A stretch of 64,000 bases of DNA from Eledone cirrhosa (lineage: Eukaryota). This document shows positions 6,791 to 59,558 of this stretch, one piece after another. Location: assembly GCA_964016885.1 (NCBI GenBank), contig OZ024744.1, positions 5,890,001-5,954,000 of the forward strand. The letters are read 5' to 3'. The notes under the pieces are model-generated. The model was not told the origin of the DNA and ran no database searches. It worked only from the letters and a program-made list of their open reading frames with translations. A program made the translations under genes and the position numbers. Numbering within the stretch: the first letter of the stretch is position 1; every line of letters begins with the position of its first letter.

Positions 6791-8395
6791 AGGTGTGGAT
6801 GTTGTCCTTTTTTAACACAGAGATGTTCTGGAGGATGGTATCTAAAGTCCTTCGTACTGAGTTTTAGGGCACGTTGGATTCCATTGTCAATTAGTGATGC
6901 AGGGTAGTCCCTGCCTATGTGTGTGTCCTTTAGTTCTTGTAGCCGTAAGTAACAGGTGTTTTTATTGGAGACTATAGTACAGATTCTCTTGGCTAAGTTG
7001 TAGGGAATATTAATTTTAACGTGTCTAGGGTGGCAAGAGTTGAAAGGAAGATATTGCTTGGAGTCTGTGGGCTTGTAGTATATGTCTGTTTCTATTTTTT
7101 TGTTATGAATCTTAATGAGGATGTCGAGGAAGGGGAGTTGCTGATGGCTGTATTCCATCGTAAAGTTAATATTCGTGTTGAGCCCATTTATAAGGGTGTG
7201 AAATTCTTTAAGTTTCTCGATGTTTTCGTGCCAAAGGATGAAGCAGTCATCTAGATATCGCTTCCAGTTCTTTTCTATATGTAAGTGGAGAGTGTTTCCA
7301 AATTTGTTTAGTACTTTAGTGTAGAGGGTGATTTCCAGGTATCCCATGACTAGGTTGGCATAAGTGGGGGCTGTTTTCGTTCCCATAGCGGTCCCAGATG
7401 TCTGCCTGTTGGATTTGTTATTGAAAACGAAGTAATTGTTCTCCAAGATAAATTTCAGTCCCTCTATCACGAATTCTTTTTTGATGCGTTGTGGGTGTTT
7501 ATTGTGGTAATTATCCAACCAGAATTGGATAGCTTCTATTCCTAGGTTGTGGGGGATGTTGGAGTATAGGTTGACTACATCGAACGTCACTAGTATGGTT
7601 TGTTCAGAAAGGGCATATTAGTGAGGTGATTGAGCATATCTAGGTTGTCCTTTATATAGCTTTTGATGTGTTTGGGAAAAGGCTTGAGAAGGGTATCAAT
7701 GAAGTTGCTAAGGCGGTGGGTTTCGCAAGCGGGGCCTGCTATTATACATCTTAATTTGAGATCATTGGGTGAGGGGACATTAATGACTATGTCTGTGGCT
7801 TCTTTGCATGCCTTACTTATTAATTCGTTTTTATGTACTTTAGGGATACCGTAGAAAAGGCTGGATTTACTTGTGAAGTCTGTGATGAAGCTGAATTCCT
7901 TATTAGTGAGTCCTTCTTTGTATTGGTTGATCAGAGTTTTTAGGTTTCTCATAATTTTCTGTTGATTGTAGTGTTCAGCCTTTTCGTAGTATGTTTCGTT
8001 TTCCAAAGTGGAGAGCGCTAAGTTGATATAGAATTCTGTCTCTATTAGGACTACTGTACTCCATTTATCATTTTTACTACTCCCTCTATAATTGTAATAG
8101 TTCTGTCGGTTTTTAATCTATTTAATTCTTCCCATTCTTTCTTGTTGAGCTTTGGCTTGTGTTTTTGTCTGTGCAAGTGTTGGTAAGGGAAGTTTGTGAT
8201 GCGTTCGCAGAATTCGTCCAGGATTTTATTTCTACCTTTTAATGGGGTGTAGTTGCTTCTATTTCTGGCTAATTTTGTACTGGTCGAATAGTTCTTCACT
8301 GAGTCGTAACTTTCTACAGAAGTCTGTGACGTCTTCCTTCATTTCATAGTAGTTAGGACGTAGTGGGGTCGGTGTGAATTTAAGACCTTTGGAGT
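6790..8395 (-). pseudogene. Inverted partial copy of the Neptune-like RT (5' inversion of the 8.4-14.4 kb element)
   Basis: ORFs 6730-7590, 7590-8006 and 8051-8299 are near-identical to 10980-12590, with frameshifts. Confidence 0.9.
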
Positions 8396-8399
8396 GTAA

Positions 8400-9510
<1,111 letters not shown>

Positions 9511-9533
9511 TATCCTCACACGAGATACAGAAA

Positions 9534-10842
9534 ATGCCAACAAAAACAGATAAAACTCTTATCAACACAAATGAAGAGATCCTACAGGAACTCAAGAAAA
9601 TTAACACCAACCTATCTGTGCTAGTCGACAAACTTGACTCCACAAATGAGGAAACCGTCACCCGATACAAACCCTCCGAAATCGGCGATAAACTTCAAAA
9701 CCTTTGCGATACTATCCAAACTATGTTCACTACTACCAACCCAGGAAAAACCAACGAAGAACCATGTGAGACTGATTCATACAAAATGAAAATTCGAACA
9801 ATCCCAAAATGGAACAAATCCCTCAGAGACAGAAAGTTCTCCTTCTGGAAGATGATACAAAATCACAACAAAGCGGAGATATATGAAAAATGGCTTAACT
9901 CAACCCCTCTAACTCTCCTCCGTAAAATACAAATAAAGTCCATTCCAAATGAACCCGAACCTCAAGGACACCTTAGGGAAAGAATGGCATTGGAAAAAAT
10001 GAAGACAGAAATTGAACTTCTTAAATTGAGGGCCCAGACAAATGAGGAAAAAATCAAAGCCATCGATGAAGAGATCCTCCTGGAAATCAACAATAAGCCT
10101 GAAGGCCCCAATGTAGAGAAGATCTCTAAATTATGGAAAGGGGACTGCAACAGAGAAGAACTGAAATCCCTTCAACGCTGGGAAATAAGTGCCGCTTGGT
10201 TCCTACACTATGAATCGACTTTTCAAACGGATTACACCTCCAATAACCCGTTCATAAAAATAGGAAAACCCATAACCGAACCGCACAACAACTTCGCAAA
10301 CCCCCAGCTACTAACAAAAGAAGAAGGAAGCACCACACCGAAGATGAACTTCCCAACCTCGCTTCCATAAGAAGGAACAAAAACCCTAGAAATCATCACC
10401 TCCAGAATGACATTTACAACTTCCCCCCTTCAAGGAGACACCATACCAAATCACTCAACTACTACGCGGATGCTTCATCGTCAAACATAGGGAAAAGATA
10501 CCACCACCATGATAGATGTAACAACTTCCCCGCTTCAAGGGGACAGCAAGGTAATTTCCATTTTCTCAACTCTCGCTTCCACAATACATAACAAACCCAC
10601 ACCACACAATACAACCACAACGTAGGCCACCTATAACACCACAATCTAACATGGCACATAGAAACACACATCCATACTCGCAATACAGGAACACCCCATT
10701 CAATCCACAACCACGAACCCGAACCACATTTTACAACATCAAGGAATATAACAAACACAGGGGACCACTTAACATCAGCAGACAACCCCTCTACCCCAAC
10801 CATTTTTTAGACACAGCACACAGATACAGGCAAACAAAATAA
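9534..10842 (+). CDS. ORF1 of the Neptune-like PLE: coiled-coil N-terminal part, His/Asn/Arg-rich tail; two apparent frameshifts after ~10320
   Basis: ATG 9534 opens 278 codons with heptad-like runs (EEILQELKKINTNLSVLVDKL; LEKMKTEIELLKLRAQTNEEKIKAIDEEI); long open stretches continue in other frames to ...HFLDTAHRYRQTK* at 10842. Confidence 0.65.
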
Positions 10843-13127
10843 CACAAGACAGGGAGGGGAAACCGAGAGTAATAAAAATTATCAATCTAACTAGTGCAGA
10901 ACCAACACTCAACCTTATCAACTTACTCGCCAAAGGTTTTAAATTCACACCGACCCCACTACGTCCTAACTACTATGAAATGAAGGAAGACATCACAGAC
11001 TTCTGTAGAAAGTTACGACTCAGTGAAGAACTATTCGACCAGTACAATGAGGATGAATCATTAGCCAGAAATAGAAGCAACTACACTCCATCAAAAGGTA
11101 GAAATAAAATCCTGGACGAATTATGTGAACACATCACAAACTTCCCTTACCAACACTTGCACAGACAAAAACACAAGCCAAACTTCAACAAGAAAGAATG
11201 GGAACAATTAAATAGATTAAAAACCGACAGAACTATTACAATTAAAGAGGCTGATAAAGGGAGTACAGTAGTCCTAATAGAGACAGAATTCTATATCAAC
11301 TTAGCGCTGTCCACTTTGGAAAACGAAACATACTACGAAAAGGCTGAACACTACAATCAACAGAAAATTATGAGAAATCTAAAAACTCTGATCAACCAAT
11401 ACAAAGAAGGACTCACTAACAAGGAATTCAGCTTCATCACAGACTTCACAAGTAAATCCAGCTTTTTCTACGGTATCCCTAAAGTACATAAAAGCGAATT
11501 AATAAGTAAGGCATGCAAAGAAGCTACAGACATAGTCATCAATGTCCCCTCACTCAATGATCTCAAATTAAGACCTATAATAGCAGGCCCCGCTTGCGAA
11601 ACCCACCGCCTTAGCAACTTCATTGATACCCTTCTCAAGCCTTTTCTCAAACACATCAAAAGCTATATAAGGGACAACCTAGATATGCTCAATCACATCA
11701 CTAATATGGCCCTTTCTGAACAAACCATACTAGTGACGTTCGATGTAGTCAACCTATACTCCAACATCCCCCACAACCTAGGAATAGAAGCTATCCAATT
11801 CTGGTTGGATAATTACCACAATGAACTCCCACAACGCATCAAAAAAGAATTCGTGATAGAGGGACTGAAATTTATCTTGGAGAACAATTACTTCGTTTTC
11901 AATAACAAATCCAACAGGCAGACATCTGGGACCGCTATGGGAACGAAAACAGCCCCCACTTATGCCAACCTAGTCATGGGATACCTGGAAATCACCCTCT
12001 ACACTAAAGTACTAAACAAATTTGGAAACACTCTCCACTTACATATAGAAAAGAACTGGAAGCGATATCTAGATGACTGCTTCATCCCTTGGCACGAAAA
12101 CATCGAGAAACTTAAAGAATTTCACACCCTTATAAATGGGCTCAACACGAATATTAACTTTACGATGGAATACAGCCAACAGCAACTCCCCTTCCGCGAC
12201 ATCCTCATTAAGATTCATAACAAAAAAATAGAAACAGACATATACTACAAGCCCACAGACTCCAAGCAATATCTTCCTTTCAACTCTTGCCACCCTAGAC
12301 ACGTTAAAATTAATATTCCCTACAACTTAGCCAAGAGAATCTGTACTATAGTCTCCAATAAAAACACCTGTTACTTACGGCTACAAGATCTAAAGGACAC
12401 ACACATAGGCAGGGACTGCCCTGCATCACTAATTGACAATGGAATCCAACGTGCCCTAAAACTTAGTACCCAGGACCTTAGACACCCTAAAGTAAATCAA
12501 CCGAAACTAAAAGCTCTTCCATACATCTCCACACACAACCCCCTCAACAATGAGGCCTTTGACACCATCCTCCAGAACATCCCTGCGTTAAAAAAGGACC
12601 ATGGAATGAACCAAATCCTTCGAACACACGATATCATAAAGAGCAAAAGACAATCTATGTCAGTGAAAAACATCCTAACACATGCCAAAGTACTGCCAAC
12701 CACAACAACGAAACCCACAGTAAAAAAATGCGATAGACCCAACAGTGGCATATGCATCGACCTAATAGAGGGTTCGGAATTCTATTTCAAAGAAGGACAA
12801 CGTTTTATAGTAAAACACAATTTCACATGCGCATCAGAAAATCTAATATATGTATTAACTTGCTCAGGTTGTCTAGAACAATACATAGGCCAGATTAAAA
12901 ACAGCCTACGCCAACGCATGACTGTCCATACATCGCAAATAAAAATATAGGAATACAGAAAAATACCACTGAGTGAACACATTGATACCTGTGCCGCCCA
13001 AAATCATCCCAACTTTAGAATCTTTCCCCTCTACAAATTTAAAGATAATGCCACCCACACCCAGCGCATCAGCAAGGAATCTTACTTTATTAACAAATAC
13101 GGACCCCGTCTAAACACTTCTCCCTAA
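10803..13127 (+). CDS. Neptune-like PLE reverse transcriptase + Cys-rich linker + GIY-YIG endonuclease (premature TAG at 12948)
   Basis: IINL..LLAKGFKFTPTP, ADKG, YGIPKVHK, RPIIA, FDVVNLY, GTAMG, RYLDD, YYKPT, FTC..NLIY..C..C..YIGQ..LRQR..H. Confidence 0.93.
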
Positions 13128-13383: not shown

Positions 13384-14400
13384 GGATTCCCCTTGCAGTA
13401 CGTACAATCTGGACACTCACACACACATTGGTATTATGCCAATACTATATATCATTTCACACCTTTTATTATTAATGTTTTTGATGTTCGTTTGAGAGAA
13501 TCGTTTTTGCAAATTACTGAAAATATTGAATAATGTACACCATTTTTACCAGTATCACAAAAATACTGGTCCATCCATCCACACACACACACACACACAC
13601 ATACACACACACATACACACGCGTACACTAACATACAAACAGACATACCCACACACACACTTCTCCGTATAAGACAAGAGCTGAAAAATATCTTTCAACA
13701 TGTTAAAATATCCCCCACACACGTACAGACACATTCCTACTGACCGAATCCCTCTACCACGAACCACTCTGCTACACACACACAGACACACACATATTTG
13801 TCTTAATAGGCACCTGAACTGTTGACCTTTCAACATGACTGCAATTCACACACACATCCCTACTGACCATTATCACAACAATGAACCTCTTTACTACACA
13901 CACACATATATTTGTCTTAAAATACTTATTTATCAGTGACTTCTCAATCAGGCGAAAAAGGACACTCTTCGACAAACCTACATTTGGTGCAAAATCAATT
14001 TTTACCATTCACTTGACCAATCAAAATTGTTTTGACTACAAGAATTTTTGCAACACGAATTGGCGCGAAACTTATAGTACTCATTCACGTGACATTCAAC
14101 AACCAACCAAATCTTAATACCTCTGGAGCCACTTTTTTCACATAAAACAGGTAGAATTTCTAAAACTGATCAGATTAGAGCAAACATCACGGGCGCTCTA
14201 TCTCAAAATTATTTTTGAAAAGCATTAGAAATGCGGAACCGGTAAAAAGTTAAAACTAAAACTGAATACTAACCAATACTTATTACTAATTTATACTTAT
14301 TCCTAATTAAACTATTTTTCACTGGGAAAAATTTGTTAGCATTTTCTTTTCCTGTTACTAATATATCACAACTCGTGTGTTACACCTCTATTTTTTTAAA
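13384..14400 (+). repeat. 3' pseudo-LTR of the Neptune-like PLE, ending in (TA)n; decayed HHR at 14211-14249
   Basis: Direct repeat of 8400-9510. Confidence 0.92.
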
Positions 14401-14771
14401 TATATATATATATACATTTTCTGCTACTAGAATTAATCCATAGATTTAATCCTATATCTCATCCCTATAACTGTTTTAAGTAATTAACTATAATTAGCAC
14501 TATATATTACATTATTTTCAATAATCTAACACAATTTTTAACCAATATCCTTTTAAACCTCCTTTTTTTAAAAAACAAAAACAGATTATTAATGTAGATT
14601 CTTATTCGAAAATATAATTCCCTACAGGGAAAACTTCATTCTAACCACTCTAACACAATACAATACTTACGTAAACTTTAGTACTTTCTTACCTATATAA
14701 TATTTTATCTATATTATATCTAAATTTCATTTCCATTAGTTTTCATTTATATTCCTCAACTTATTATATTA

Positions 14772-18219: not shown

Positions 18220-20620
18220 ATGTGTGTATTGGAAGATGATTTTATTAGTAGAGATGGGGGAGGGAGTTGTGTGTGTGTGCGAGTATGTTAAGATGGAGAG
18301 AATATATATTTTGTGTGTGTGTATATATATATGTGTGTAGGAAAGTGGTTCTATTAGTAGAAATGGGGAGGGAGTTGTAGGTGTGGGGGTTGTTATGTGT
18401 GTGTATGGGTGTTATGTGTGTGGGAGTATGGTTAGCATGTTAAGATGAAGAGAATATATATATATATATATATATATTTATTGTGTGTGTGTGTATGTGT
18501 GTGTGTAGGAAAGTGATTCCTTTAGTAGGAATATTTTTGAATGAACATATTTTTCTGACTTTTTCGTGTTTGTTGTTGTATTGCCAGTGCAAACGTATGT
18601 TAAGGTTTATTTAGTTCGGGTTTTTATTTTCTAAAGTAGAAGGTGTTATGTGTGTGTGTGTATGTCATATTGTGGTGTTGACATAATGTATATTAAACCT
18701 TATTTAATGTTGGTCTATATTTTTGAATAAACATATTTTCCTTATTTATTCGCATTTGTTCTGTTGTATTGTTAGCGCAAAGGTAAAATGGGAAGACTTG
18801 GAATTTGGGTGTCTTATTACCTGCGCAAATGTCTAGATGTGCACTTAGTGGTATCTGTCTCGTGGTTGGATCTCGTAATTGTTGGCGATGAACTGTCATT
18901 CTGTTTCTGAGTGTGAGTTTAGTTTGTCCTATATAATCTTCATTGCATCCTTTACATTTAATGGCATAAATTTGATTTTTTGATGAGCAAGTGAAGTGAT
19001 TTTTTAAAGTAAAATTTTGTCCTGATTTAAATGTATACGTGTTGCCTTCAATGAGGTGAGTGCAGGTTCCACAATTAGAGCGACCACATTTTTTGATACT
19101 TGGTTGTGGGTTTGTGGTAGGTAATTTGGCATTGGTGAGTAATGTTTTCAGTGATTTTGGTTGTCTTTTGTTTTTGATTATTTTGTGTGTTTCAAGGGCT
19201 TTTTTTCATTCTTGGGTTTTGTTTTAGTAGTGGGATGTTATTGTGAATAGTGTTGTAAGCTTCCGCATTTCTTGGGTTGTGTGTTGAGATATATGATAGA
19301 ATATTGGACGTACCTTGAATTTGTTTCTGTTTCCGTAATTCATCAATGCCTATTGCTTTAGCCCTTTCTATTCCATTATTTATTAGTAATAGTGGGTACT
19401 CTCTCTCAAGTAGAATTTCCTTTAATTCTTGAAGTCTTTTATTTCGCGTTTCATAATTGGAGACAATTGTGCAAATTCTTCTTGCTAGGTTAAAAAGGAT
19501 GTTCGTCTTCGTATGCTTTGGATGGTTGGAGGTGAATAGCAGATATTGTTTGGAATCTGTTGGTTTGTAGTGTATGTCAGTTTCGATATTTGTGTCTTTT
19601 TTTGTGATTAAGATGTCCAGAAATGGGAGTTGATCTTGGCTGTATTCCATTGTGAATTGGATGTGGTTATTGATGCCGTTTATTAAGTTTTTGAAATCCT
19701 TCAGGTGGTCGAGTGTGTGGGACCAAAGAATGAGGCAATCATCCAAGTAGCGTTTCCAATTCTCTGATAAATATTTGTGGAAGTTCAATCCGTATTTTGA
19801 TTTGGACTGTTCATATATCTGGACTTCTAAGTATGCCATGACTAAGTTGGCATAAGTTGGAGCGGCTTTTGTGCCCATCGCAGTCCCCGATATTTGCTTG
19901 TAAGTATTACCATCGAAATCAAAAAAGTTGTTCTGTAGGATGAATTTTAATCCCTCGGTGATGAAGCTTTTTTCTATTATGTCAGGTATCTCATTGGGAT
20001 ATTTCTCTAGCCAGAATCCTATTGCTTCTAGTCCGTATTGGTGTGGGATCGTTGTGTAGAGATTCACTACATCGAAAGACACGATAATAGTGTCGTTGTT
20101 GACATGTTTGGGGAGGTGGTTTAAGAGGTCCAGATCGTCTCTTACAAGGCTTGGTATGTGTTTCAGTATTGGTTTCAGTAGTATGTCTATAAAGTTGCTC
20201 AATCTGTGTGTTTCACATTGTGGGCCCGCTACAATTGGTCTTAATTTAAGGTCTGTGGGGTATTGTGTGTTCACGCAGGCTGAGGTGGATTGTTTACAGG
20301 CATCGTTGATTATTTTACATTTATGGATCTTCGGAAGTCCGTAAAGGTTGCTGGTTTTGTATTCAAAATTTGTTAAATAATCGCGTTCCTTTTTAGTTGG
20401 GTCTTCCTGGTATCGATAAATCGGTGTGTTTAATTTGGTCATTATTTTTGATTGCTGGTAGTTTTTTACTCTTTTATAGTAATTAGTATTTTGTAAGAGA
20501 GAGAACATAGAATTTTTATATTTTTCAGCCTCCATAATGACAACAGTACTTCCCTTGTCCGCTTCCTTAATTACAATGTCCGTATTGTTTTTTAGTTCAT
20601 GGATAATCTCCCATTCCCTT
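17490..20620 (-). mobile_element. 5'-truncated Neptune-like PLE (RT-GIY-YIG ~18693-20620, pLTR ~17490-18100)
   Basis: ORF 19192-20685: ADKG, YGLPKIHK, FDVVNLY, GTAMG, RYLDD; GIY-YIG C-terminus in 18693-19100. Confidence 0.92.
17629..17666 (-). ncRNA. Type I hammerhead ribozyme, U3-A8 core variant
   Basis: CCTT-TTGAAAA-GCAG aagaa CTGC-GAAAC CG GTA-AAGG. Confidence 0.8.
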
Positions 20621-20815
20621 TCGAGCCACTTTTTCCATATAAAACAAGTAACATTTAGAGACCAACCAGATGTGAGAAAAACCACAGACCCTCCATCTCA
20701 ACTCACCTTTTGAAAAGCAGAAGAACTGCGAAACCGGTAAAGGCACCAAATAAATATATATATATTTTAAAAAAATAAGACTTCAGTTGCATTTTCGATT
20801 TCATCTCTTTTTCTA
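20620..20815 (+). repeat. Inverted pLTR copy of the Neptune-like element, with an intact U3-A8 HHR at 20706-20743
   Basis: Reverse complement of ~17555-17745. Confidence 0.88.
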
Positions 20816-21559: not shown

Positions 21560-22507
21560 CCCACACCCCACCACCGTTTATTTATACTTCTCTTGGGTCA
21601 GTATTGTTTGTTTGGGTGTTGTTGTTATTCCATTCATTTTTTTCTGTTTAGCCTTAGCCTTCTAAGTTCTATTTCACTGGCCTCTCTGATTTGCCTATCT
21701 GCTGGGTCATTTCTATGTTTAGATATTATTCTAATTTCTATGTTGTCTATGTTACCGTCGTGTTGTTGTCTGGCATGTTCGTATAGTACTGAACCGTTTT
21801 TTCGTCCTTTTAGTTTCCCCCAGTGTTGGTCTATCCTTTCACCTATGCTACGAGCTGTCTCATCTATGTATCTTGTTGTCATGTTTCTGCAAGTACCCTC
21901 TGTACATCTTATGCTATAGACTACATTTCTAGTCTTACAGTTTATCCGGCGGTTTACTTTACATGTGATACATTTCCTATTAGTACAGTGGGTTTTCTTA
22001 AAGGTAGGTTTTGCTGATCAGGGATTTTATGGTGGTTCTTGTCTTTTCTACCACCTTAATCTTTAAGTGGGTCTTTCTCATGGCCTTTCTACACTGGTTA
22101 GCTAATTTCCCTCCAGGGGTAGCGTCCACAAACATAACACTCTGGTATCTCTTGTTGTCGTACCATGAGATGGCTTTCCCTACCTTATGTCTAGTCCTAT
22201 CTAAGCTATTCCATGATTTGCTCCTGTATAATGGGCAAATTCCTTTCATGTCCAGTTCTATGAGGGTCTTATACTTCTCCGTGGCTCCTTCGTATACTCT
22301 GAATCTGTTTCTTTGGCTGTAGCCAGAGAACTGCATGCGGTTGATGAAGTGTTGGATGTGCCTTTCCATTTCTGTTGGGTCGCACATGCGGGACACATTC
22401 TTCATCACTCGTACCAAGTCTGCGATCAGAATATTAAACTTAGCACTACTGGACATTGCTGAGTTTCTGAGTATCAGGTATTTGGAGGCCATGGGTTTAG
22501 CGTAGTG
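21560..22507 (-). pseudogene. Inverted 3' part of the Nematis-like PLE (thumb + GIY-YIG)
   Basis: Reverse complement of ~23890-24790; ORFs 21998-22492 and 21634-21882. Confidence 0.88.
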
Positions 22508-25324
22508 TCAACAAATAGATGACGAGACAGAGGCACAGTTCACCATAGTTAAAAATAGGATTAGACAAATAGTAGACCGATATACTAAGAGACAAAGCAG
22601 ACCAGAGGTCCAACAACTTGGGAGGAAACCTGTAGACGGCTTGGTTAGCCTCAAGCAGCGCACAAGGGATGGTGAGGTAGTATGTCTACCCACGGATAAG
22701 TCTGGTAGGATGTCAATAGACAGCATGCCAAACTACATCAAGGCTATGTAACCCCAAATCACCGACACGAGCGAAATTGCATAACAAATACATGAGGGGA
22801 GAGAGAACATCCTCAACGCTCACCTGATGATGTGGACCGACATCCTAAAACCAAGTATACGCACTGCCAACAACTTACAGGCGTCTAACAATGGCATACT
22901 ATGGGCTCCGCAAAGACCATAAGACAGTCGACGACCCGACAACAGGACCACCAACAAGACCCGTATGCGGAGCCAATATAGCTAGCAACTACAGGATCTC
23001 CTACTTCCTCTCAATGGTTATACGCCCCATAATCAAGATGTCCCCAGATGTATGTGACAGTACAGAGGACCTCCTCAGCAGAATCAGTGAGTGCAACAAA
23101 AACAAAAACCTAACCAACTGCATAATAGGCAGCATGGATGTGGTGTCACTGTACCCATCCATTAACATTGATTTTTCTGTGGAAATATGTGTGGAGATGA
23201 TCATTGAGAGTGAGGTGGAGTTCTGCGACGTCGACACAGACGAACTGGGCCTCCTACTTAGACTTACCTACGACACTGACTACCTAGACAGCCATGACCT
23301 TAGACGTTTCTGCCCCAGTAGACCTATAAGAGGTAGACCCCCCCACCAAAACCTCAATGGCAAAAAAGACTCCCATAGGAAGGTGGATTGGGTGTACCAA
23401 AGCTATACAGACCCCCCCCCCCCCAAAAAAAAAACAATGATCAGGTAAGAAAAAGGGTCGCACATGCAATAGGGCCTAGTATCAAAACTACTCTAAAGGG
23501 CCACATATTCAAATTCAACGAGAAGATCTACACCCCAAATGAGGGAGCAGCAATTGGCGTCAGCATAGCTGGTGACGTTGCCAACCTTTTTATGGTATGG
23601 TGGGAAAGGAGACTCAAAGATCTCCTTGATGAGAGCTCCATAGACCTCATCATGTACTCTCGTTATGTAGACGATATCAATATAGTTATAAGAACATCCC
23701 CACAAGAGAGCACTAATAAGTTTGATTTAGAACGTAGCACAATAGAAAGCATCCAGCAGATAGCTAATTCCATACACCAGAGTATAACTGTAACTATCGA
23801 CTACCCTTCCAAACACCCTAACAATAGACTATCTGTATTACACACGGAACTCTGGACTAACACTATAGACGAGAGAGCCCAAATCTCCACTCACACTACG
23901 CTAAACCCATGGCCTCCAAATACCTGATACTCAAAAACTCAGCAATGTCCAGTAGTGCTAAGTTTAATATTCTGATCGCAGACTTGATACGAATGATGAA
24001 CGTGTCCCGCATGTGCGACCCAAAAGAAATGGAAAGACACATCCAACACTTCATCAACCGCATGCAGTTCTCTGGCTACAACCAAAGAGACAGAATCAGA
24101 GTATACGAAGGAGCCACGGAGAAGTATATGACCCTCATAGAACTGGACATGAAAGGAATTTGCCCATTATACAGGAGCAAATCATGGAATAGCTTAGATA
24201 GGACTAGACATAAGATAGGGAAAGCTATCTCATGGTACGACACCCAGAGATACCAGAGTGTCATGTTTGTGGACGCTACCCCTGGAGGGAAATTAGCTAA
24301 CCAGTGTAGAAAGGCCCTGAGAAAGACCCACTTAAAGATTAAGGTGGTAGAAAAGCCAGGAACCACTATAACATCCCTGATCAGCAAAACCTACCCTTTT
24401 AAGAAAACCCACTGTACCAATAGGAAATGTATCATATGTAAAGTAAACCCCCGGATAAACTGTAAAACTAGAAACGTAGTCTATAGCATAAGATGTACAG
24501 AGGGTACTTGCAGAAACATGACAACAACATACATAGGCGAGACAGCTCGTAGCAGAGGTGAAAGGATAGACCAACACTGGGGGGGGGGGACTAAAAGGAC
24601 GAAAAAACGGTTCAGTATAATACGAAAATGCCAGACAACAACATGACTGTAACATAGACAACATAGAAATTAGAATAATATCTAAACATAGAAATGACCC
24701 AACAGGTAGGCAAATCAGAGAGGCAAGCGAAATAGAACTTAGAAGGCCAAAGCTAAACAGAAAAAATGAATGGAATAACAACAACACCCAAACAAACAAT
24801 ACTGACCTAAGAGAAGTATAAATAAAAAAAAAAAAAAAATACATACACAAGCACAATAACAAACACATATAAACACACACTAGTAAACTAAGATAGAATA
24901 CAATAACCAATACACGGTCGCCCAAACACAATACACACACGCAAACGCATGCGCAGAGAAGAAGGCAAAAATAAATATATAAACAGACTAAATAAAGATG
25001 GCGTAGATATACAATACAACGGGAGGAAACATAATAGCACCACTGACGATGTTGCAGATGTGCAACAAAAGAAGTTTGTTAGACTATATATATGTGTTTG
25101 TGTCTATATTATATCTGTATTTTTTACCGTTGGTCAGTCAATGGCAACATTGAGGACCGAATAAATTAAATTAACCGATATAAAAGACACAGAAGCGAAA
25201 ACCAACCAAACAATGAGTGTGTTCTGTTATTAATTCTGGCAATATTATTACACAAATATGACCCTCCCCAAGTATAACAATATTTGTTTCGACACACAAT
25301 TTCATATCAAACACTTCGCAAAAC

Positions 25325-34229: not shown

Positions 34230-36169
34230 AGCTTCGTCCAGCTGATTTTATATTCCATGTTTGCATCTCTGAGTTGCCAGATTTTATTGGCGAGAGTTCT
34301 TGTATTTATGAGCTTCCTGTTATTCATAGAGTGTCTATGGTACATTACTTTTAGCTAAAAACCTAAATAATCAAAACTTAGAAAGATTACGGAAAAAGAT
34401 TAGAAAATTATTTAATAAATTGTGCCTTAACATCACTTTTGAACTCAACTCTAAAAAAGCTAACTTCTTAGATGTATCGCTCAACCTTAACTCAGGACTA
34501 ATAGAACCCTTCCATAAAAATAATGAAAATTTAGCTTACATTAATTATAACTCTAATCACCCTCGATCCATAATTAACTCCATAGCACATAGTATATCCC
34601 TTAGAATCTCACGCCTATCTTCTATTCTAGAGATTTTTAACGAACACGCTAACTACTACAACATAACTTTACTTAAGGCAGGCCATAAAGAGAGACTCAA
34701 ATACATACCAGATACAAAAAATAACAACACACTTAATAGAAATAACACTATCCACACCTATAGAAGCAACAAATCTAGGACTAAACATAGAAATTGGCAA
34801 CAAGCACGTGAATTAATTGAACAGAATATTAATATAAAGACCACTAATAACTATAGAAGATGCAGAGATAGAAAGTACTTATGGTTCAATCCAATATTTA
34901 ACTCCTCTATAAAAACAAAACTACCTTATACTTTCTTCAAATTAGTTAACAAACACTTCTCTAAACTTCATAAAATCATAAAATCATAAAATCTTTAATA
35001 GAAAAACTATCAAACTATCATACTCCACTGCCAACAACATAGAATCGCATATACATAAAATTAACTATAAAAGAATTTATAATGCAAGTAGCCCGCAAAT
35101 AAGTACCATAACACCAAATATAAAACATAAGTATATAACATCATCACAACGAAACACACGCCAGAACACATCACCACAATACATCAACAAACCCAATTTT
35201 TAGCCCATACATAACAATTTGCAAAACCGTATAGAAGAACCGGCACATAGGAAGGCATCTAAATGTAACTGTCATCTACCTGACAATTGCCCATTACAAA
35301 ATAGATGCCTAGAGTCAAATGTAGTGTACTTATGTACTATAAATTCAGGCAGCTTAGCATGGCACTACATAGGATCTACAGCTGGAGAGTTTAAGAAAAG
35401 GTAGTATGTCCATAGACACTCTATGAATAACAGGAAGCTCATAAATACAACTCTCGCCAATAAAATCTGGCAACCCAGAGATGCAAACATGGAATATAAA
35501 ATCAGCTGGACGAAGCTATCAACGGCCTATCGAATTGGCATATCCCACTGTGGTCTTTGTAATGTGGAACTTTTCCAAATTTTAAATTACAACAAAATGC
35601 TACTTAACAGTAAAATTGAAAAAACTATTTACTGTAGGCATAAAACGGCGACCAAATTTGAGAACTTTAGACCAGCTTAATTCATCTAATCTATTCCATA
35701 ACCCAAATTGTACCATTTAGATCTATTATAATAGCACACCATCATCAGTTTTGTTATAATTGTCATCATCTATCAATGAAGCAACATCAAAACCTCTTAT
35801 ATTTACATTCATATTTTATGTATCTCTATCTTTCACTTTCTATCTCTCTATTTTTCTACCTAAATTTATTCCATCTCTGGCATTTTATTTTATCTTATCA
35901 TACCATTTTCACTTCTAATATAACTTACAACTAATTAATCAAATGATTAATTAATTTTATAATTAATTTATTAAAATAATCAATACACACATAAATATAT
36001 TTAACATTATCATATTTATACCTTCGTATCTCTCTATATGTTAACCACTTTCAATAATCTTAATATGTTTAAATTTCTTCGCACATTTTTACTTATTTAT
36101 TTTCATGTTTTCATATTTCATATTTTGTATCATTTTGTACCATTTTATATCATCCTCGATGTAATTTGT

Positions 36170-37435: not shown

Positions 37436-39389
37436 GACAGGGGGGAAGAAAAAATGGCTTCACTTGTGCTTTCAACAAATTTATTTTCTTCACAAAATCC
37501 AAAAAGAATTTTTCTTAAAAAAAATTATTTTATAAATTAAGTTGTTGGTTGTTGGTTAGGTCTTAGGAGTTCTTGGTTAACGTAGGAGGTATTGTTTCGT
37601 TTTTAGAAAGACCTTTCACGCTGAGGTGCGCTTGTCAAACTGATGTGTATGTGGTGTGTTGTTCTATATATAGGGATTTAACATGTCTGTGGTGTGGTAG
37701 GGGTTTCTTTTCATACATCATACATCGAAGCACCAAAACCGACAGACTTAAAATTACGCCCCATTATTGCTGGCCCAGCCTCAAGCACACAACGTCTAAG
37801 CAACCTATTAGACATCATACTCAAACCCCTATGTAAAAAAGTTCCAAGCTACATCAGAGATGATATGGAATTCCTTAACTATATCCCCCAAAAAGTACAC
37901 CAGGATACAATCCTAGTCAGTTTTGATGTAATAAGCCTGTACACTAACATCCCACACGACCTAGGGATTGAAGCTGTGGACTTCTGGATTACAAAACACT
38001 CAAGTCACATTTCAGAAAGATTCCCCAAAGAATTCATCTTGGAAGGACTTAAATTAGTATTGGAAAACAACCACTTCCTCTTTGACAACGAACTTTATCT
38101 ACAAATAAAAGGAACAGCCATGGGTACCAAAGTGGCCCCTACATATGCAACGCTCGTTATGGGTCACTTAGAGGCAAAATTATATTCCCAACTACAGATA
38201 ACATTCAGTCACGACTTCGCCTTCTACATTAATAAAAACTGGAAACGTTACCTAGATGACTGCTTCATCTTCTGGAACAGAAGCCAAACAGACCTACAAA
38301 AATTTTATTCGATCCTAAACAGGCTTCATGAAGCTATACATTTCACTATGGAATGTAACGAAAAGGAACTGCCCTTTCTAGATATCCTCATCATTAAAGA
38401 AGGGGAAAATATCATAACGGACCTATTTTGCAAACCCACTGACACACACACCAATACTTAAATTTCCGGTCAGCATACCCCTCACATACGAAAAGGAACA
38501 TTCCCTTCAACATGGCAAGGCGCATCTGCACTATAGCAACACACCCCGTACTACAAGAAAAAAGATTATGTGACCTGAAAAAATTCCTTAAAAAACAAGA
38601 ATACCCGATGAAACTCATCAACGCAGCCATCTCCAAGGCTAAGAACATCCCAATAACAACACTGAGAAAACCAAACCCACAACATAAAAAAGAAAACCCT
38701 GCTATCTCTTTTGTCATCACTCACAACCCAGGAAACATCAACATTGTGAAAACTGCTAAGCAGTATCTCCCGATTCTACAGCAATCTACCAAAATGAATG
38801 GACTCTTAAAAAACACACAGATAATTTATAGCAGACGCCAAGCACCCAACCTTAAAAAACTAATTACCAAGGCAAAATTTACGACCAACATGGAATCAAT
38901 GCAAGTGACGAAATGCGGGGACCCTAGATGTGGAACCTGTGAACTCATCGAAGAGGGCAAACAGTTGTCATTCAAAAACCATGATAATTTCAAGGTCAAT
39001 GCTAACATGAACTGCAAAACGAAAAACCTAATATATTGCGCAACATGTCCACAGTGTAAAGAGTATTAAATTGGGGAAACCGGACGGGATTACATGATAG
39101 AGTCCGGGTACATAAACAACAGATTAAAGACCCCACAGTCAGAAATACCACATGTAGCCACACTTTGCATCATGCGGGAAGGGAAAATTCACAATCTTCC
39201 CTTTCTTCAAGATATGGTCGGATAACGAACATTTCCGCAGATATAAAGAAGAATTCTTCATTGAAAAATTTAAACCACTACTGAACACGAAAAAATGAAT
39301 TAACACTCGTAGGTAAAATTCCATTTCACTACCCCCCCCCCTCTTCTTATGTATACACATGAATATCTGAGTGAACGGTGAGACACACA

Positions 39390-48074: not shown

Positions 48075-50415
48075 ATATATATAATATAAGATCAAAAGAT
48101 GATTGAAAGAGTTCCAAGTATTTTATTATGCGCATTTCAAAAACAAACATCATCCTGGGATGATATATGCGTTTTCATCAGATAAAATAGGGATACATGA
48201 TATGAAGCTTAAAAAACACTTGTGAGTAGTGAAGTTTTAAATCAACATATGAAAAATAATTTAAGATTGATGTATGAGATTGGAAAAAAGTGAGGGGGGG
48301 GAGTAGAAAAGGTAAGGAAGAGGAGGAGATGAGAGTAAAGAATGGTGGGGGAGGAGTATAAGAATGAAGGATGAGAGAGGAGGAGATATGGGTGATAGAG
48401 AGAGAGAGATAGCCTTTACAACTGAGAAAAATATATATATTGTCTCACAGAGAGAAGTTAAAAAGCCGTTGGAAGATAATAGATAATTTAAAAGAATTTG
48501 AAATTGAAAGTTAATGAGGTTTATGCATGAAGAGGAAAAAAGGGATTAAGAATAATATTAAAAGGTTTGTATATTGAAGGGTTTAATAATACGTGCGAGA
48601 AAAAGAAATTAATAATATGTATTATTAAAATAAAAATATTAATGTTATTAAGGATATAATGTGAAAAGAAGTAAAAGAATGAATGAGTTGTGAATTTAGA
48701 GGAATTAGTTAGTGTTTAAGTTTGTTTTTTATGTAATGTAATATGTGTACGTAATATATGTACGTAAATAGTTTGTTTTAAAATGAGCGCAGAAAGCAAA
48801 GAAGAAAAGAATGTTTAAGGAAGAAAAATATCTAACATAAAAAAATATATATGTTTAAGAAATATTTTCTAATGGTAATATTATAATATATTAAAGGAAT
48901 TAGTTAGGGTTTAAGTTTGTGTTTATGTATTGTAATATGTAAAAGTCAAACGAGCATGAAAGGAAGAAATAAGGAATTTAAGGAAGAAAAATCTAACGTA
49001 ATAAAAAAAAATGTTTATGTTTACGAAGGACTGTTAAAGGTAATACTATAATGTATTTAAAAAAATAATAATAATTTTTATGGCCAATGATATGAAGAAA
49101 GATGGAAGAATGGATAATGTTGTGGTGAGTAATAATAAGAATTGAAAAGTAGTTAGGAAGCAAAGTTCAGATTAGAGGTTAGAAATTAGAAAGAAAAAGG
49201 GAAGAAAGGAAAGTGATAAAGAGGAATGATATAGAATGAGTAACTTGTATTATATAATATATAATAAATAATATTGAAATAAGGTAGAAAGATGGGTATA
49301 TTTTTAAAAGATATATAATCCTTTGAGAAAAAAAAAGGATTTTAAACTAATAAGGTATTAGATATTAGCTGTATACTTTATGGAATGTTCTGTGGAATTT
49401 ATGCAAGCAGAGAGAAAATAAATCGGTGCGTCTATTTATTATAGAATTGAAATTAGATATAATGGTAAATTTCTCAGATAGGCAAAGATTACATGTTCTG
49501 GATAGGGAGGCATTCAAGTAGGGAGTGGCAGAACACACTTTTCTCCAAGAGATGTTATAGTTAATATTTTTGTCTTTCAAGGACTATATGAGTTCTGAGA
49601 GTGCCGTGTTAGTTCATTTAAGTTGGCATCTAAAAGACGAATTGTGATTATAAAATCTAGCTTTGAAGGAGGTGGAAGTGGAACCGAAATAGGTAAAGGA
49701 ATTGGTATCAGTACCTTATATTCATAGACTAAGTTTGTATCAAGACAATGGTTATTGAGAGGACATTTAGTTCTAACAGGGCAATTACAATTGCGATTAG
49801 AGAGATTAACAGAGTTATTAACAAGTGACCTAGTGTTATTTATAGGAGGAATTGGATTGGAGAAGTTATTTACAATAGGAATAATAATTTCCTGATTTAG
49901 ATTGGTATTATGAATATTCAACAAAGTTACGTTTGACGTCGTATTTGAGTTTGCAGAATCTAGCCTAGAGTTAACAGTGACGTCGGGAGTACTACTGCTA
50001 TTATTATGACGCTCAGTGTTGGAAGGATGTGATTTAATATTTAATATTTTATTGTTGTGTTTAGAGATAATGTTGGAGATGTTGGATGAGGTGGAATAGG
50101 AAGATTTTATTGTATGTTTGTTAAAGATTTCACTATAGATATGTGAGGGAGGGAAGCATTTATCTAAAGCTCTAAAGAATAGTTTAGGAATATTATTATT
50201 AATAGAAATAGAGAAAGGAGCATTATACTAGATTATATTTTTGTATCTAGGTCTTTTATTTAAGTTATTGGAAGATCATAATTAATTATTTTACTGTAAA
50301 ACTCTTTTAACCATCTTTTGATCTTATATTATTTATACTCCAGTCCTACAAACTGTAGAGTGTTACTTATCCGATATTTGCATTGCTTTATTGTGATACA
50401 ATAAAACTCACCTCC

Positions 50416-50420
<5 letters not shown>
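48075..50420 (-). mobile_element. Naiad-like PLE 3' part (GIY-YIG ~49365-50270), long AT-rich UTR, decayed HHR at 48121-48188, inverted tip at ~50290-50420
   Basis: YNAPFS, FNKHTIKSSYST, CNCPVRTKCPL..CL, CNLCLSEK; CTGATGA-AAAC..GTTTTT-GAAA then AATAAA. Confidence 0.8.
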
Positions 50421-50451
<31 letters not shown>

Positions 50452-50457
<6 letters not shown>

Positions 50458-53400
50458 ACTGCTCCTGACTGGTTGAGCTTCCTCCTATATACTGGTGTTT
50501 TGGCCTTTATATATATCTGACAGTATGCTAACAAAGAGTTACCTCCCTTTATCTCTGAAGAATATTCCCATCCCCTCTAGAAATACATATGAAAAACTCT
50601 TAATTGCTAGTGTTAACTCCTTCGTAAAAAGGATTAGATGGCGTGCTTTCCACTATGATACTAATAGGAATAGTACTGACCCCAAGCATAGAACTCATTT
50701 CAATAACTTTGGCTTCAAAACTTATAAGAGCCCACCACATAATGTTATATTAGATAATTTTGAAAATGACTTACTTTCCCTTGTCAAAAATATTAAGTAT
50801 AGGCCAAATAATAGACATGGAAATTATAATAAATTTGACAGGTTCCAGTCTAGACTTAAAAATATTGTTAAGGGTTTTAGTGCGAATAAGTCTATTCTTG
50901 TCCCGGCGGATAAGACTAAGAATCTATACTCTATGGATTACAGTGCTTACCGTGATTTTATTTATAAGGAGCTGCATAGAAATTATAAAAAGACTACGCA
51001 GGATAATTTGAACCATATCAATAGTGAGGGTCTTAAGATAGTCTCGGACCTTGGCCTCGATAAGTATACCCAGCCATATTACCCTAGGGAACCGAGATTC
51101 ACTCTTAAGGATCATAAGGTAGACTTCATTAGTAATCCCTGTTAGACTCATCTGTCCTTCCAAGTCTTATATAGCCATAATTAGTAAGAAAATCCTTGAC
51201 CTTATTATACCAGATGTTAGGGAGAAGGTTAATTTTAACCTTTGGGGGAGCACTAAGGAGGTTATAGATTGGTTCTCTGGTATTGATAAACTTGAATCTA
51301 GTAGGTTTATCCAGTTCGATATTGATGCCTATTACACATCGATTTCACCCATCCTCCTTAACAAAGCCTTAATGTTGGCCATGAGAGTGTCCAACCTTAC
51401 ACGATCACAGGTAGATATTATACTAGCAGCCCGTAGAACTATCATTAATTTTGAGGATACATTTTGGACCGTAAAAACACGCCCAACAATTTCGACGTTA
51501 CAATGGGTTCGAGTGATTCGGCCCAGGTAACTGATCTTGTTGGGCTGTTCCTCTTAAATGAACTATATGTTACCTTTCCGCACCTTAAAGGCGGACTTTA
51601 TCGTGACGATGCATTGTTTGTGATTAACTTTAGCACCAACAACGTCGAGCATAATAAGAAAAAGCTTTATAAGTTTTTTTAAAAGCTATAACCTTTCGAT
51701 CACGATAGATAGAAACGATAGAGCGATCAACTTTTTAGATATGACTTTGGACTTGGTCACTAATAGTTTTAAACCCTTCCATAAGCCTAATGAAATACTC
51801 TCTTATGTTAGTCCCAATTCTAACCACCCCAAATCTATGATAAGCTCTATAATTAATGGGGTATCTAATAGGATTTCCACACTCTCTAAGGACGTAGGAA
51901 CATTTAATGCACATGCAGAGTACTATAATAATGCCCTAGCTAATTCCGGTTACTCTGGTAAAATACATTATAATAATAGTAACCTTAGAAAATCTCCGCT
52001 TACTTATAATAATAATAACATAATATCCCATAATATGGCCATGAATGGGAGTAGAAAGCATAAGAATCGTAGAAATCACATAGGTGTATCTGAACCCATC
52101 CATAAGTCAAGCCACCGGTCTCGTAATAGGGAATCTAATACTTCTAGGAATCAAGTGGAGCCCTCTGAGCGCTCACTTAGTGGTAATGCTTTTGCTAAAT
52201 CTAATTCTAATAGTGTTGTTTCTACTGATCCTATTATTAGCCCTAATCCTTTTGTTATGTTTCCAGATAGCAGCAAATATACTAATGGTAGAAACAGAAA
52301 GAGACTTAATGGAGTTTCGGCTGATTCTAATAATGTGGTTTTAACTAGTCCTTGTAGTAACCCAAATCTTAATAAGGGGATATTATATAATTGTAGAGTT
52401 GGTAAGGATAAAAATAGAAGGAGACTAAATACTTATTTTAACCCGCCATATAATCAGGAAGTATTAACCAACATCCCTAGGTCTTTCTTTTCTATCTTAG
52501 AGAAAAATTTCCCTCCTACTAATAAATACCATAGTATTTTTAATAAAAATGTAATTAAGCTTTCATTTTCTACCACCCCTAATATTAGTTCTCATTTAGC
52601 TAGCACTAACAATGGGAAAATTAGGGATGGATACTCCTCTCTACGTACTACTAGTCTGAATAGATCCATAAATACTTTACCACCTGTGCAGACCTTATCT
52701 CATAGTAACCCTACGTGTGATGCATCACTACTTCAGCCGATCAATAGCACCCGGAAGTGTAACTGTAGAGTGAGTGCTAACTGCCCTTTGAACGGTAACT
52801 GCCTCTCTAAGAACATCGTTTATGCTTGTGTAGTTAAAACCAATTCCTCTAATAGCACATATATAGGCTCTACATCTAACACTTTTAAGACTAGGTTTAA
52901 TTCTCATATCTCTAATTTTAAACATGTTAAGTTTAAGAATTCTACTTCTTTAGCACACCATATCTGGGATCTTAAGGGGGTTAATATACCATATAGCCTT
53001 AATTGGCGAATAGTAGCACGCTCTAATAACCTTTCAACACATACTAAATTTTGTAATCTCTGTATCCTTGAGACCCACTCTATAATTTTCTCTAGGGAAA
53101 CCTTACTTAATAGAAAGTCTGAGATATTCTCTTCTTGCCCCCACGCCATTTCAAATTCTTTCTTTTATTATAAACCTAAAGGTTCTAGTAGTGTAAATTG
53201 TATCCATTAGCTGCTATATTCCCTTATCTTTTTAGTTTAGGTTCATTTTGTTTACCACCATCATTATCATCATTATTATTATTGGTTTTTAACAGCTTTT
53301 CATTCTAGCTTTCATAGTCTTTTGGCTATCATACCATATCTATCTTCTTAAATATTATATTTTCACTATTAACACCTTATGAGTTTATATCTGATTATAT

Positions 53401-58545: not shown

Positions 58546-58622
58546 CTCGTTGAGCAAACCTACACGTACGCTGTTCATCTCTAACGTGACGATATATTAT
58601 CACTACATTATTGATAACTTGA

Positions 58623-58674
<52 letters not shown>

Positions 58675-59215
58675 TCAGGGTTATGGTTTTGTCGGTGTTT
58701 TTGCATTTAACTAGGTGTTTCTTAAATGAGGAAGCGTTAGTATTGAGGGTTTCTTTTATTCTTATGTGGAGTGGTTTGGTGGTGCTACCTACGTAGAAGT
58801 TGTTGCATTTGTCACACTCTAGTCTGTATACGACGGAAGCCTGGTGGCATAGGTCTGTGTCGTTGATGGGGCAGTTGGCTAGTCTGCAGCAGTTGTCATG
58901 TCTGGTGGGGTGTCTTTTGGTTAGCTGTCCGCGTAGAGAAGGTCCTGAGTGGGCTAGTTGGATATCTAGTCCCTCTCGTCTGATGGCTCTGCGGATGGCT
59001 GTTGTTGTTTCTTCACTGAAGTGTGGGAGCTTCAGGAAGCAAGTGTTAGTGCCTCGGGTGCGGTGTCCTCTGTTCTTTCTGGCACGGTTTGTGGTGGATG
59101 TCGTGTATCCGTTCAGTTTGAGTACTTCCAGGAAATGTGTGGTGTGTGTGTCTCGGTCTCTAGCGTCGGTGCATTTGTTCCGTATACGTGCCAGTTCGTT
59201 CTTGTTCCGGATACG
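58675..59215 (-). pseudogene. Penelope/Poseidon-like GIY-YIG fragment
   Basis: VVYRLECDKCNNFYVGSTTKPLHIRIKE; near-identical to 6200-6745. Confidence 0.85.
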
Positions 59216-59558
59216 TACCAGTGTGTCCATGTAGGGGCTCCCACCGGAGCACTGAGTGCAATGTCAACTCTGGATGTCGGTGAGCATGTACAGCTAATCT
59301 CAATCTCCTCTGTGTCACTTTTGAGCTGACTTTTGGGATGCTCCCATACAGCTCTGAGTTTTTGATCCTCAGTGTATACTGATTAATGTTCAGTGCCATC
59401 CTCAGCATTCTCGTGTAGCACCCATCCACCATCTGAGTGAGTTTCTTGGTCAGTGTCCAAGTCTCAGATTCGTACAGCAGCACAGACTCCACTACAGCAA
59501 TGAAGAGGAGGATATTCAGGTCTTTACGAAGGTCCGACATCCACACCAATCTCAAGCT
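59216..59558 (-). pseudogene. RTE-clade LINE RT thumb fragment
   Basis: LFIAVVESVLLYESETWTLTK..DGCYTRMLRMALNI. Confidence 0.85.

Follow-up and report, generated by a model that had tools for sequence, protein, structure and literature searches.

The stretch of DNA analysed here (hereafter the window, 64,000 nt) covers positions 5,890,001 to 5,954,000 of contig OZ024744.1 in the Eledone cirrhosa assembly GCA_964016885.1. It contains an element which, judged by its sequence, is a decayed copy of an endonuclease (EN)-bearing, Neptune-type Penelope-like retrotransposon (PLE); we refer to its family as family A. We read it as a PLE with two open reading frames (ORFs), in which the reverse transcriptase (RT) and EN encoded by ORF2 would be fused to ORF1 by a −1 frameshift and a ribosome terminating at the ORF1 stop, ten codons past the slip site, would give the pause. 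We assign this overall reading a probability of roughly 0.8. Its parts are graded separately: −1 ribosomal frameshifting very probably yields the RT-endonuclease as a fusion to ORF1, and the terminating ribosome is put forward as the stimulator tentatively, by analogy. The original prediction for this locus had proposed the two-ORF, −1-overlap design in a Neptune-like, EN-bearing (EN+) PLE, and this design holds, together with a Neptune-type linker, for family A and for the whole RT clade described below. The prediction missed the conserved ten-codon spacing between slip site and stop. An ORF1 with a frameshift has already been drawn for some type of PLE (Craig et al. 2021, Figure 1 legend, PMC8557442); new here is the position of the ORF1 stop, which follows the slip codon at a distance of exactly 10 codons in all 50 family A copies and in 20 of 57 ORF1 homologs. 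In teaching and annotation, EN+ PLEs count as single-ORF elements. Should this clade make its RT as an ORF1 fusion, the RT N-terminus is currently mis-called and a gag-like family of at least 488 representatives, without a shared Pfam family, has so far gone unnamed.

The window alone could not tell a programmed shift from decay, because ORF1 lies there in three pieces and ORF2 has an early stop. ORF1 runs from 9534 to 10370 and then continues in two other frames. With the natural copy L023 as reference, the breaks are two 1-nt deletions near 10300-10305 and 10616, one unique to the window copy and the other found in 2 of 30 copies (the window and one of 29 others); independent DNA runs carry the deleted bases. 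The early stop is a TAG at 12948-12950. Natural copies were taken from the 3.0 Gb genome assembly. A junction search gave 913 candidates, of which 40 were scored and the best 30 fetched; searching with the RT N-terminus yielded 150 scored matches, ∼50 of them in 784-codon open frames, and 20 were fetched for their long frames. Together these 50 copies, which are spread over many contigs, form the family A set. ORF1 and RT do not share one frame in the family: an open ORF1 of 436 aa, from its ATG to the counterpart of the TAA at 10840, is present in 6/50 copies, in a frame unlike that of ORF2, and both ORFs are whole in L032 and L049, with ORF2 in the −1 frame. The ∼1.3-kb ORF1 claimed before RT thus exists in the family, and is not open in the window copy. 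ORF2 has an RVT_1 match and intact copies show LIY..C..C..YIG..R..H..H, a PLE-type RT and then a GIY-YIG domain with CCHH, and pseudo-long terminal repeats (pLTRs) in direct/inverted arrangement are present in the family.

As had been described, T_TTT_TTA at 10803-10809 is in phase with the last ORF1 segment, and from 10773 onward the −1 frame stays open into RT. The conserved RT motif, which reads KIINL..LLAKGFKFTPTP in the window (10875-10958), lies upstream of the first in-frame ATG at 10980. The heptamer had also been taken for the last codons of ORF1, which was wrong: exactly 10 codons follow before the TAA at 10840-10842. The canonical T_TTT_TTA is present in 46 of the 50 copies and the ten-codon distance in all of them. 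As the copies are ∼95% identical, these counts show the layout and not selection.

Four further families of the genome have the same architecture. ORF1 and ORF2 comprise 409 and 775 codons in family B, 427 and 777 in family C, 455 and 796 in family D and 476 and 775 in family E, always with ORF2 in the −1 frame. T_TTT_TTA is phased in 17/20 copies of B and 18/20 of C, and occurs in 9 of the 12 copies of D with a matched junction and in 9 of the 12 fetched copies of E; the last family was fetched as a held-out test after the collision idea presented below had been formed. Families B and C are ∼43-45% identical to family A in ORF1 and ∼55-57% in RT. Two ORFs in different frames are therefore found in five families of this genome, which do not fit the single-ORF definition of a canonical EN+ PLE. 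A single-frame family architecture was considered and rejected: the fused copies in B, C and D (L068, L071, L073, L089 and L179) are single-copy homopolymer length changes. In these copies and in L180 a change in the length of poly-C, poly-A or poly-T fuses ORF1 and ORF2 into frames of 739-1289 codons, and in L090 a homopolymer change shifts the frame without fusing the ORFs; these changes may be mutations or assembly errors.

We found 488 ORF1 homologs at E ≤ 1e-3 among 50%-identity representatives. The named members of the ORF1 clusters are from Mytilus and Pinctada, and gene models of Mytilus link an ORF1 of this family with the RT motif found here. When metagenomes were scanned with the RT N-terminus, 80 of 84 loci were retained, and the 70 with a match far enough from the contig start were scored. 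Together with four of the genome families they fell into 52 clusters; 37 of these had the length and continuity needed for a quick RT tree. One clade of this tree holds the ORF1-bearing elements (22 rows, Shimodaira-Hasegawa-like approximate likelihood ratio support 97). A phased T_TTT_TTA/G occurs in 19 of its 22 rows, two rows have T_TTT_CAA or T_TTT_CGA and one is decayed; in the 15 rows outside the clade the slip site was found in none. The conservation of the heptamer, which the original prediction had named as a check, thus extends from family A through families B-E to this clade. The C-terminal CX2-5CxxC linker and GIY-YIG domain are present in all 15 clusters that are long enough (12 by pattern, 3 by eye), while six contigs end earlier, and the linker-to-GIY spacing fits the Neptune and not the Nematis rows of Craig 2021, Figure S2. 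The ORF1 homolog P0002 used as query gave no metagenome locus, the viral contigs searched gave no such element, and the prokaryote genomes searched gave one contig only, which belongs to the single-ORF sister group.

Several sister rows instead have 200-320 in-frame N-terminal codons. Seven sister PLEs (L132, L136, L137, L143, L145, L146 and L148) carry an in-frame N-terminal extension of 230-320 aa with a conserved CPK.LRY; the extensions contain coiled-looking stretches and gave no match to the ORF1 profile. L112, L113 and L191 carry another in-frame extension. L191 is a 1006-codon single-ORF PLE in a contig of a bacterial metagenome-assembled genome, probably animal contamination.

For the slip site itself we analysed the tails of 71 ORF1 proteins of 320-620 aa, taken from the best 150 of the 488 homologs. 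The dipeptide FL occurs within the last 45 residues in 57 of the 71, compared to 4 and 3 in the two neighbouring windows. K, E, Q, M and W, the residues with no codon ending in U, were never seen directly before FL (0/57, background 22%, P = 7e-7). Across elements with otherwise unalignable tails the site is conserved in its nucleotides and locked in phase. In the DNA the U-run is exactly six long in 21/21 clusters scored and position −1 is never U. The site has the X_XXY_YYZ form of a classical −1 frameshift heptamer, conserved and in phase within the ORF overlap. Three of the 21 clusters (L075, L131 and L135) have an AUG on the way from the slip site to the I-I-N-L motif and 18 have none; frameshifting is likely because most ORF2s lack an AUG ahead of their first conserved motif. 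Variant sites U_UUU_CUA, CAA or CGA were seen at the homologous position in L098, L142, L100 and L114 and in the proteins P0046, P0062 and P0020, with the stop 9-11 codons on; if functional, they would imply single-tRNA slippage.

Of the 57 FL proteins, 20 have exactly 10 residues between FL and the stop, four have 11 and none has fewer than 10. The ten residues themselves are unrelated between elements (9.8% identity compared to 8.1% by chance). At the DNA level the stop lies at 10 codons in 7 of 21 clusters where 0.75 would be expected from shuffling the linker codons, a count that was not reached in 200,000 draws, and at fewer than 10 in one cluster where 11.2 would be expected. This test excluded the near-duplicates L123 and L124 as well as L144, a deletion copy. 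The protein set and the DNA set partly overlap: P0025 and L115 have a common tail. We also considered whether the K-I-I-N motif by itself brings about the +10 stop. This was rejected for the group with the stop at 10 codons, as there the slip site and the RT motif are 19-28 codons apart and both TAA and TAG are used; it does fit families B, C and D as well as L091 and L101. A C at position +4 weakens termination, and we found C after the stop in 5/7 compared to 1/9 cases (P = 0.035), a post-hoc, weak hint of slow termination on which we do not rely. Nor do we claim the second peak at 20-23 codons (a two-ribosome queue).

We found no conserved RNA structure that could serve as stimulator. The original prediction had seen no hairpin downstream, and folding agrees: the 60 nt after the spacer in the intact family A copy L049 gave −0.8 kcal/mol (z 0.14). 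No common 3' structure was predicted across 23 loci. Using simple predictors, no stimulatory hairpin or pseudoknot 5-9 nt downstream is conserved across the 21 clusters; a simple scan for H-type pseudoknots found none in families A-D, and 2 of the 21 clusters scored better than each of their 30 shuffles.

A stimulator without RNA structure is known from Escherichia coli reporters, where a ribosome stalled at a stop stimulates the −1 slip of the trailing ribosome on a heptamer one footprint upstream (Smith et al. 2019, PMC6815119). In yeast the minimal gap of collided ribosomes is reported as 10 codons, and human disomes are enriched at stop codons (bioRxiv 10.1101/2023.02.01.526718). The family A junction has the layout of those reporters at the eukaryotic distance, and it would work as follows. 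Most ribosomes would stop at the end of ORF1 and release ORF1p, predicted to be a gag-like RNA-packaging protein. The leading ribosome on the ORF1 stop would hold the next one with UUU and UUA in its P and A sites, and a minority would slip back one base on U_UUU_UUA and produce an ORF1-RT-EN fusion of ∼1200 aa. The level of frameshifting would then depend on termination speed and ribosome load instead of RNA structure. In its broadest form, as a structure-free −1 shift throughout a wide EN+ PLE clade, with selection holding the stop one collided-ribosome gap (10 codons) past U_UUU_UUA and translation load setting the ratio of ORF1p to ORF1-RT-EN, the proposal is a possibility to which we give somewhat less than even odds. 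It bears on the open question of whether natural systems, and eukaryotes among them, make programmed use of collisions as a stimulator; natural variants that have or lack the +10 stop number in the dozens and offer a comparison set.

Several observations weigh against a role of the terminating ribosome. A 0-frame stop one such gap past the slip codon characterizes family A and 20/57 homologs and is absent from families B-E, whose stops lie at 20 (B), 19 (C), 31 (D) and 23 (E) codons, although B, C and E have many intact copies; the held-out family E has neither the +10 stop nor structure. The stop lies at 4 codons in L106 and at 9 for the variant site of L114. Nineteen of the 20 proteins with the stop at 10 fall in one half of a quick ORF1 tree, which indicates long retention and not many independent origins. 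When the ORF2 linker protein was held fixed, a null conditioned on the very sequence under test, the excess was weak (P = 0.036 for exactly 10, P = 0.056 for fewer than 10). At the family A stop position, the 11th codon after the slip codon, Trp is found in families B (L059:2857-2859) and C (L075:2527-2529), in P0002 and P0004 and in L120; a Trp codon is one base from a stop, which suggests that the stop was lost without loss of activity. Five loci (L091, L097, L120, L131 and L135) fold better downstream than their shuffles (z −2 to −3.4). In the bacterial system the loss of bL9 has only a ∼2-fold effect (PMC6815119). Against the frameshift itself, G follows the heptamer in 18/21 clusters and the residue after FL has a G-starting codon in 44/57 proteins, which also fits a UUAG splice acceptor. 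Separately, we observed that Arg precedes the Trp in 4 of 5 cases (CGG/CGA TGG in B and C) and that family D and P0076 have a Lys run at the stop position; Trp and Lys are possibly alternative stall signals.

Alternatively, the −1 shift may be real and unassisted or otherwise driven, by basal slippage on U_UUU_UUA, scarce Leu-tRNA(UUA), the nascent peptide or a bound protein, with the ten-codon tail kept for the ORF1p C-terminus or the ORF2 linker. Such a shift comes close to an even chance: four of the five families here manage without the +10 stop, the synonymous-recoding null is marginal only, the T_TTT_CTA variants in L098 and L142 suit single P-site slippage, and HIV-1 slippage reportedly varies with the amount of tRNA-Leu(UUA) (PMC13712778). 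What it leaves unexplained is the exact length of a spacer whose residues are identical at chance level only, and the lower bound of 10 in 57 proteins with its match to the collided-ribosome gap.

Explanations without a ribosomal frameshift appear far less probable. If TTTTTTAG were a splice acceptor, as the original prediction had allowed, splicing would join ORF2 to an upstream exon. An AG does follow the U-run directly in 17/21 clusters, family E, L093 and L098 without it have one 6 nt further in the same phase, and PLEs are known to retain introns (PMC8557442). Yet there is no pyrimidine tract beyond the six U, L092 and L110 have no nearby AG, the residue after FL has a codon that cannot start with G in 13/57 proteins, a splice from the 5' untranslated region (UTR) to 10810 would leave the conserved motif without a preceding AUG, and nothing in splicing requires ORF1 to cross the U-run always in one phase; we consider it improbable. 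Codon phase is likewise not required by RNA-polymerase slippage, which would fuse the ORFs in the RNA by adding one U to the T6. One extra T does fuse the frames and T7 is found in L068, L181 and L182, but T5 copies exist too (L046, L190), and T7, expected in new insertions assuming that the RT prefers its own mRNA, was seen in 0/50 family A copies; this route is very unlikely. We regard it as just as remote that ORF2 is translated separately, by reinitiation or from a non-AUG start near the overlap, with the U-run encoding a conserved Phe-Leu peptide motif of ORF1p. The loose FL[GDE]xG pattern in ORF1 and the AUG before the motif in 3/21 clusters would suit it; selection on the peptide would permit TTC and six Leu codons where the codons are in fact fixed (T, TTT, TTA/TTG), and the remaining 18 clusters lack the AUG.

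The ORF1 protein has a predicted helical N-terminal part of ∼240 aa and then a disordered, basic, R/N/H-rich tail (net charge +23). A model from a 128-sequence alignment predicts long helices at 12-42, 47-67, 90-122, 142-188 and 192-233, with a predicted local distance difference test score >90 for ∼90-240. This agrees with the original description as a coiled-coil ORF1 as far as the long helices go. A Foldseek search with the model gave no match at E ≤ 1e-3, and a homo-trimer prediction of residues 1-245 scored 0.02 and gave no answer. The best VIA Z was 8.8, to generic helical bundles, which is below the meaningful level for helical folds, and there was no usable match in the Atlas. No Pfam family is common to more than one of the 128 homologs and no similarity of ORF1 to Gag was detected. 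A word-indexed protein search found no longer, fused ORF1 protein, which is weak evidence. From its position and make-up we infer a scaffold or packaging role for ORF1p.

Canonical EN+ PLEs are described as single-ORF elements (PMC8557442, PMC4209133 and PMC6515669). The element shares with Neptune (Arkhipova 2006 via Craig et al. 2021, PMC8557442) the RT, the CX2-5CxxC linker and C-terminal GIY-YIG with CCHH, the long linker-to-GIY spacer (Figure S2), pLTRs, inverted/tandem insertions and a microsatellite flank; it differs in that an ORF1 of ∼400 aa without a shared Pfam domain precedes RT in another frame. The Neptune-type label refers to the linker/EN spacing relative to Figure S2, and Neptune itself is reported to be paraphyletic (PMC8557442). 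A killifish Neptune, compared by description only, has a short, non-overlapping ORF1 of 420 nt with no known similarity (PMC12602865), and esterase ORFs are reported in Neptune-like PLEs of fish and molluscs (PMC5408684). According to the Figure 1 legend of Craig et al. 2021, a frameshift with a pseudoknot can separate ORF1; the clade is left unspecified (PMC8557442). With the two-ORF coiled-coil PLEs of that legend our element shares a helical ORF1 upstream of the PLE RT, joined by frameshift; unlike them it carries an EN and lies interspersed, and neither a pseudoknot nor a hairpin is predicted for it (the ORF1s were compared by description). The element also differs from the EN-less, telomeric Athena/Coprina in having an EN and copies over many contigs, and from Naiad/Chlamys, where the EN is N-terminal, in having it C-terminal. 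Two-ORF PLEs with a coiled-coil ORF1 and a frameshift are known mainly as the EN-less Athena/Terminon type.

HIV-1 gag-pol uses the slip heptamer U_UUU_UUA. The heptamer here is the same and so is the logic of a structural protein versus an enzyme fusion, but HIV uses downstream RNA structure (PMC13712778), none is conserved here and ORF1 has no detected Gag similarity. The design of Smith et al. 2019 (PMC6815119) also places a slippery heptamer one ribosome length upstream of a 0-frame stop without an RNA stimulator; it is engineered and bacterial with an optimum of 9 codons, whereas the element described here would be a natural counterpart in eukaryotes, with a conserved gap of 10 codons. 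In SARS-CoV-2 a stop at 5 codons lets the pseudoknot refold (Bhatt et al. 2021, PMC8168617), whereas here the stop is almost never below 10 and no structure is predicted. Within the literature searched, which did not extend to the primary Athena/Terminon papers, Repbase and most subscription journals, we found no paper on frameshifting in EN+ PLEs (an earlier mention is possible), and on collision-stimulated slips only the bacterial reporter study.

The features of the element are listed in Table 1. The inverted second copy next to it is an arrangement typical of PLEs. The linker of the window copy has its second Cys replaced by Ser.

Table 1. Features of the PLE in the window (positions refer to the window)
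Feature	Positions	Strand	Remarks
Inverted second copy of RT region, 5'-truncated	6837-8400	−	Matches 10922-12486, 95.9% over 1576 nt
5' pLTR, CA-microsatellite rich	8400-9513	+	Direct repeat of 13384-14407, two blocks, 93-96% identity
Hammerhead-like motif in pLTR, degenerate	9321-9349	+	UGAAAA-stem-GMAAC-CG-GUA; second copy 14216-14244
ORF1	9534-10842	+	436 aa where intact; two 1-nt deletions break it here
Slippery heptamer U_UUU_UUA, codons Phe-Leu, ORF1 phase	10803-10809	+	Same in 46/50 copies and in relatives
Ten-codon spacer and ORF1 stop TAA(C)	10810-10842	+	No predicted RNA structure; candidate terminating-ribosome roadblock
ORF2, −1 frame	10773-13127	+	PLE N-terminal motifs, RT, linker, GIY-YIG; 784 codons where intact; RVT_1 E = 2.3e-7
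RT N-terminal motif KIINL...LL.KG.KFTPTP, conserved	10875-10958	+	5' of first in-frame ATG (10980)
C-X4-C-X2-C linker and GIY-YIG domain with CCHH, Neptune-type spacing	12729-13127	+	By eye against Craig 2021, Figure S2
3' pLTR	13384-14407	+	Terminates in (TA)n microsatellite

In the pLTR we found no Rfam hammerhead match and no CUGAnGA core, only the degenerate candidate motif of Table 1. It has UGAAAA where CUGAnGA would be expected, a CCGG palindrome precedes GUH, and in family A it departs in GAAA too (GCAA/GGAA). The sequence of its stem differs and yet pairs in families A, B and C (outside the window at L059:1490 and L075:1080). A possible 5'-UTR intron at 9254-9533 spans the pLTR end, as in Penelope, with candidate donors CAG|GTAGAA and CCG|GTAAAA, a TACTAAC near 9375, a pyrimidine-rich stretch and a CAG directly before AAA ATG.

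Truncated copies of families B and D lie at 18693-20697 (−) and 37682-39069 (+). Other decayed PLE-like fragments with RT or GIY-YIG, of different types, were seen at 21634-24646, 34330-34989, 49577-53210, 55939-57870 and 58541-59263; PLEs and CA/TA microsatellites predominate in the window as a whole.

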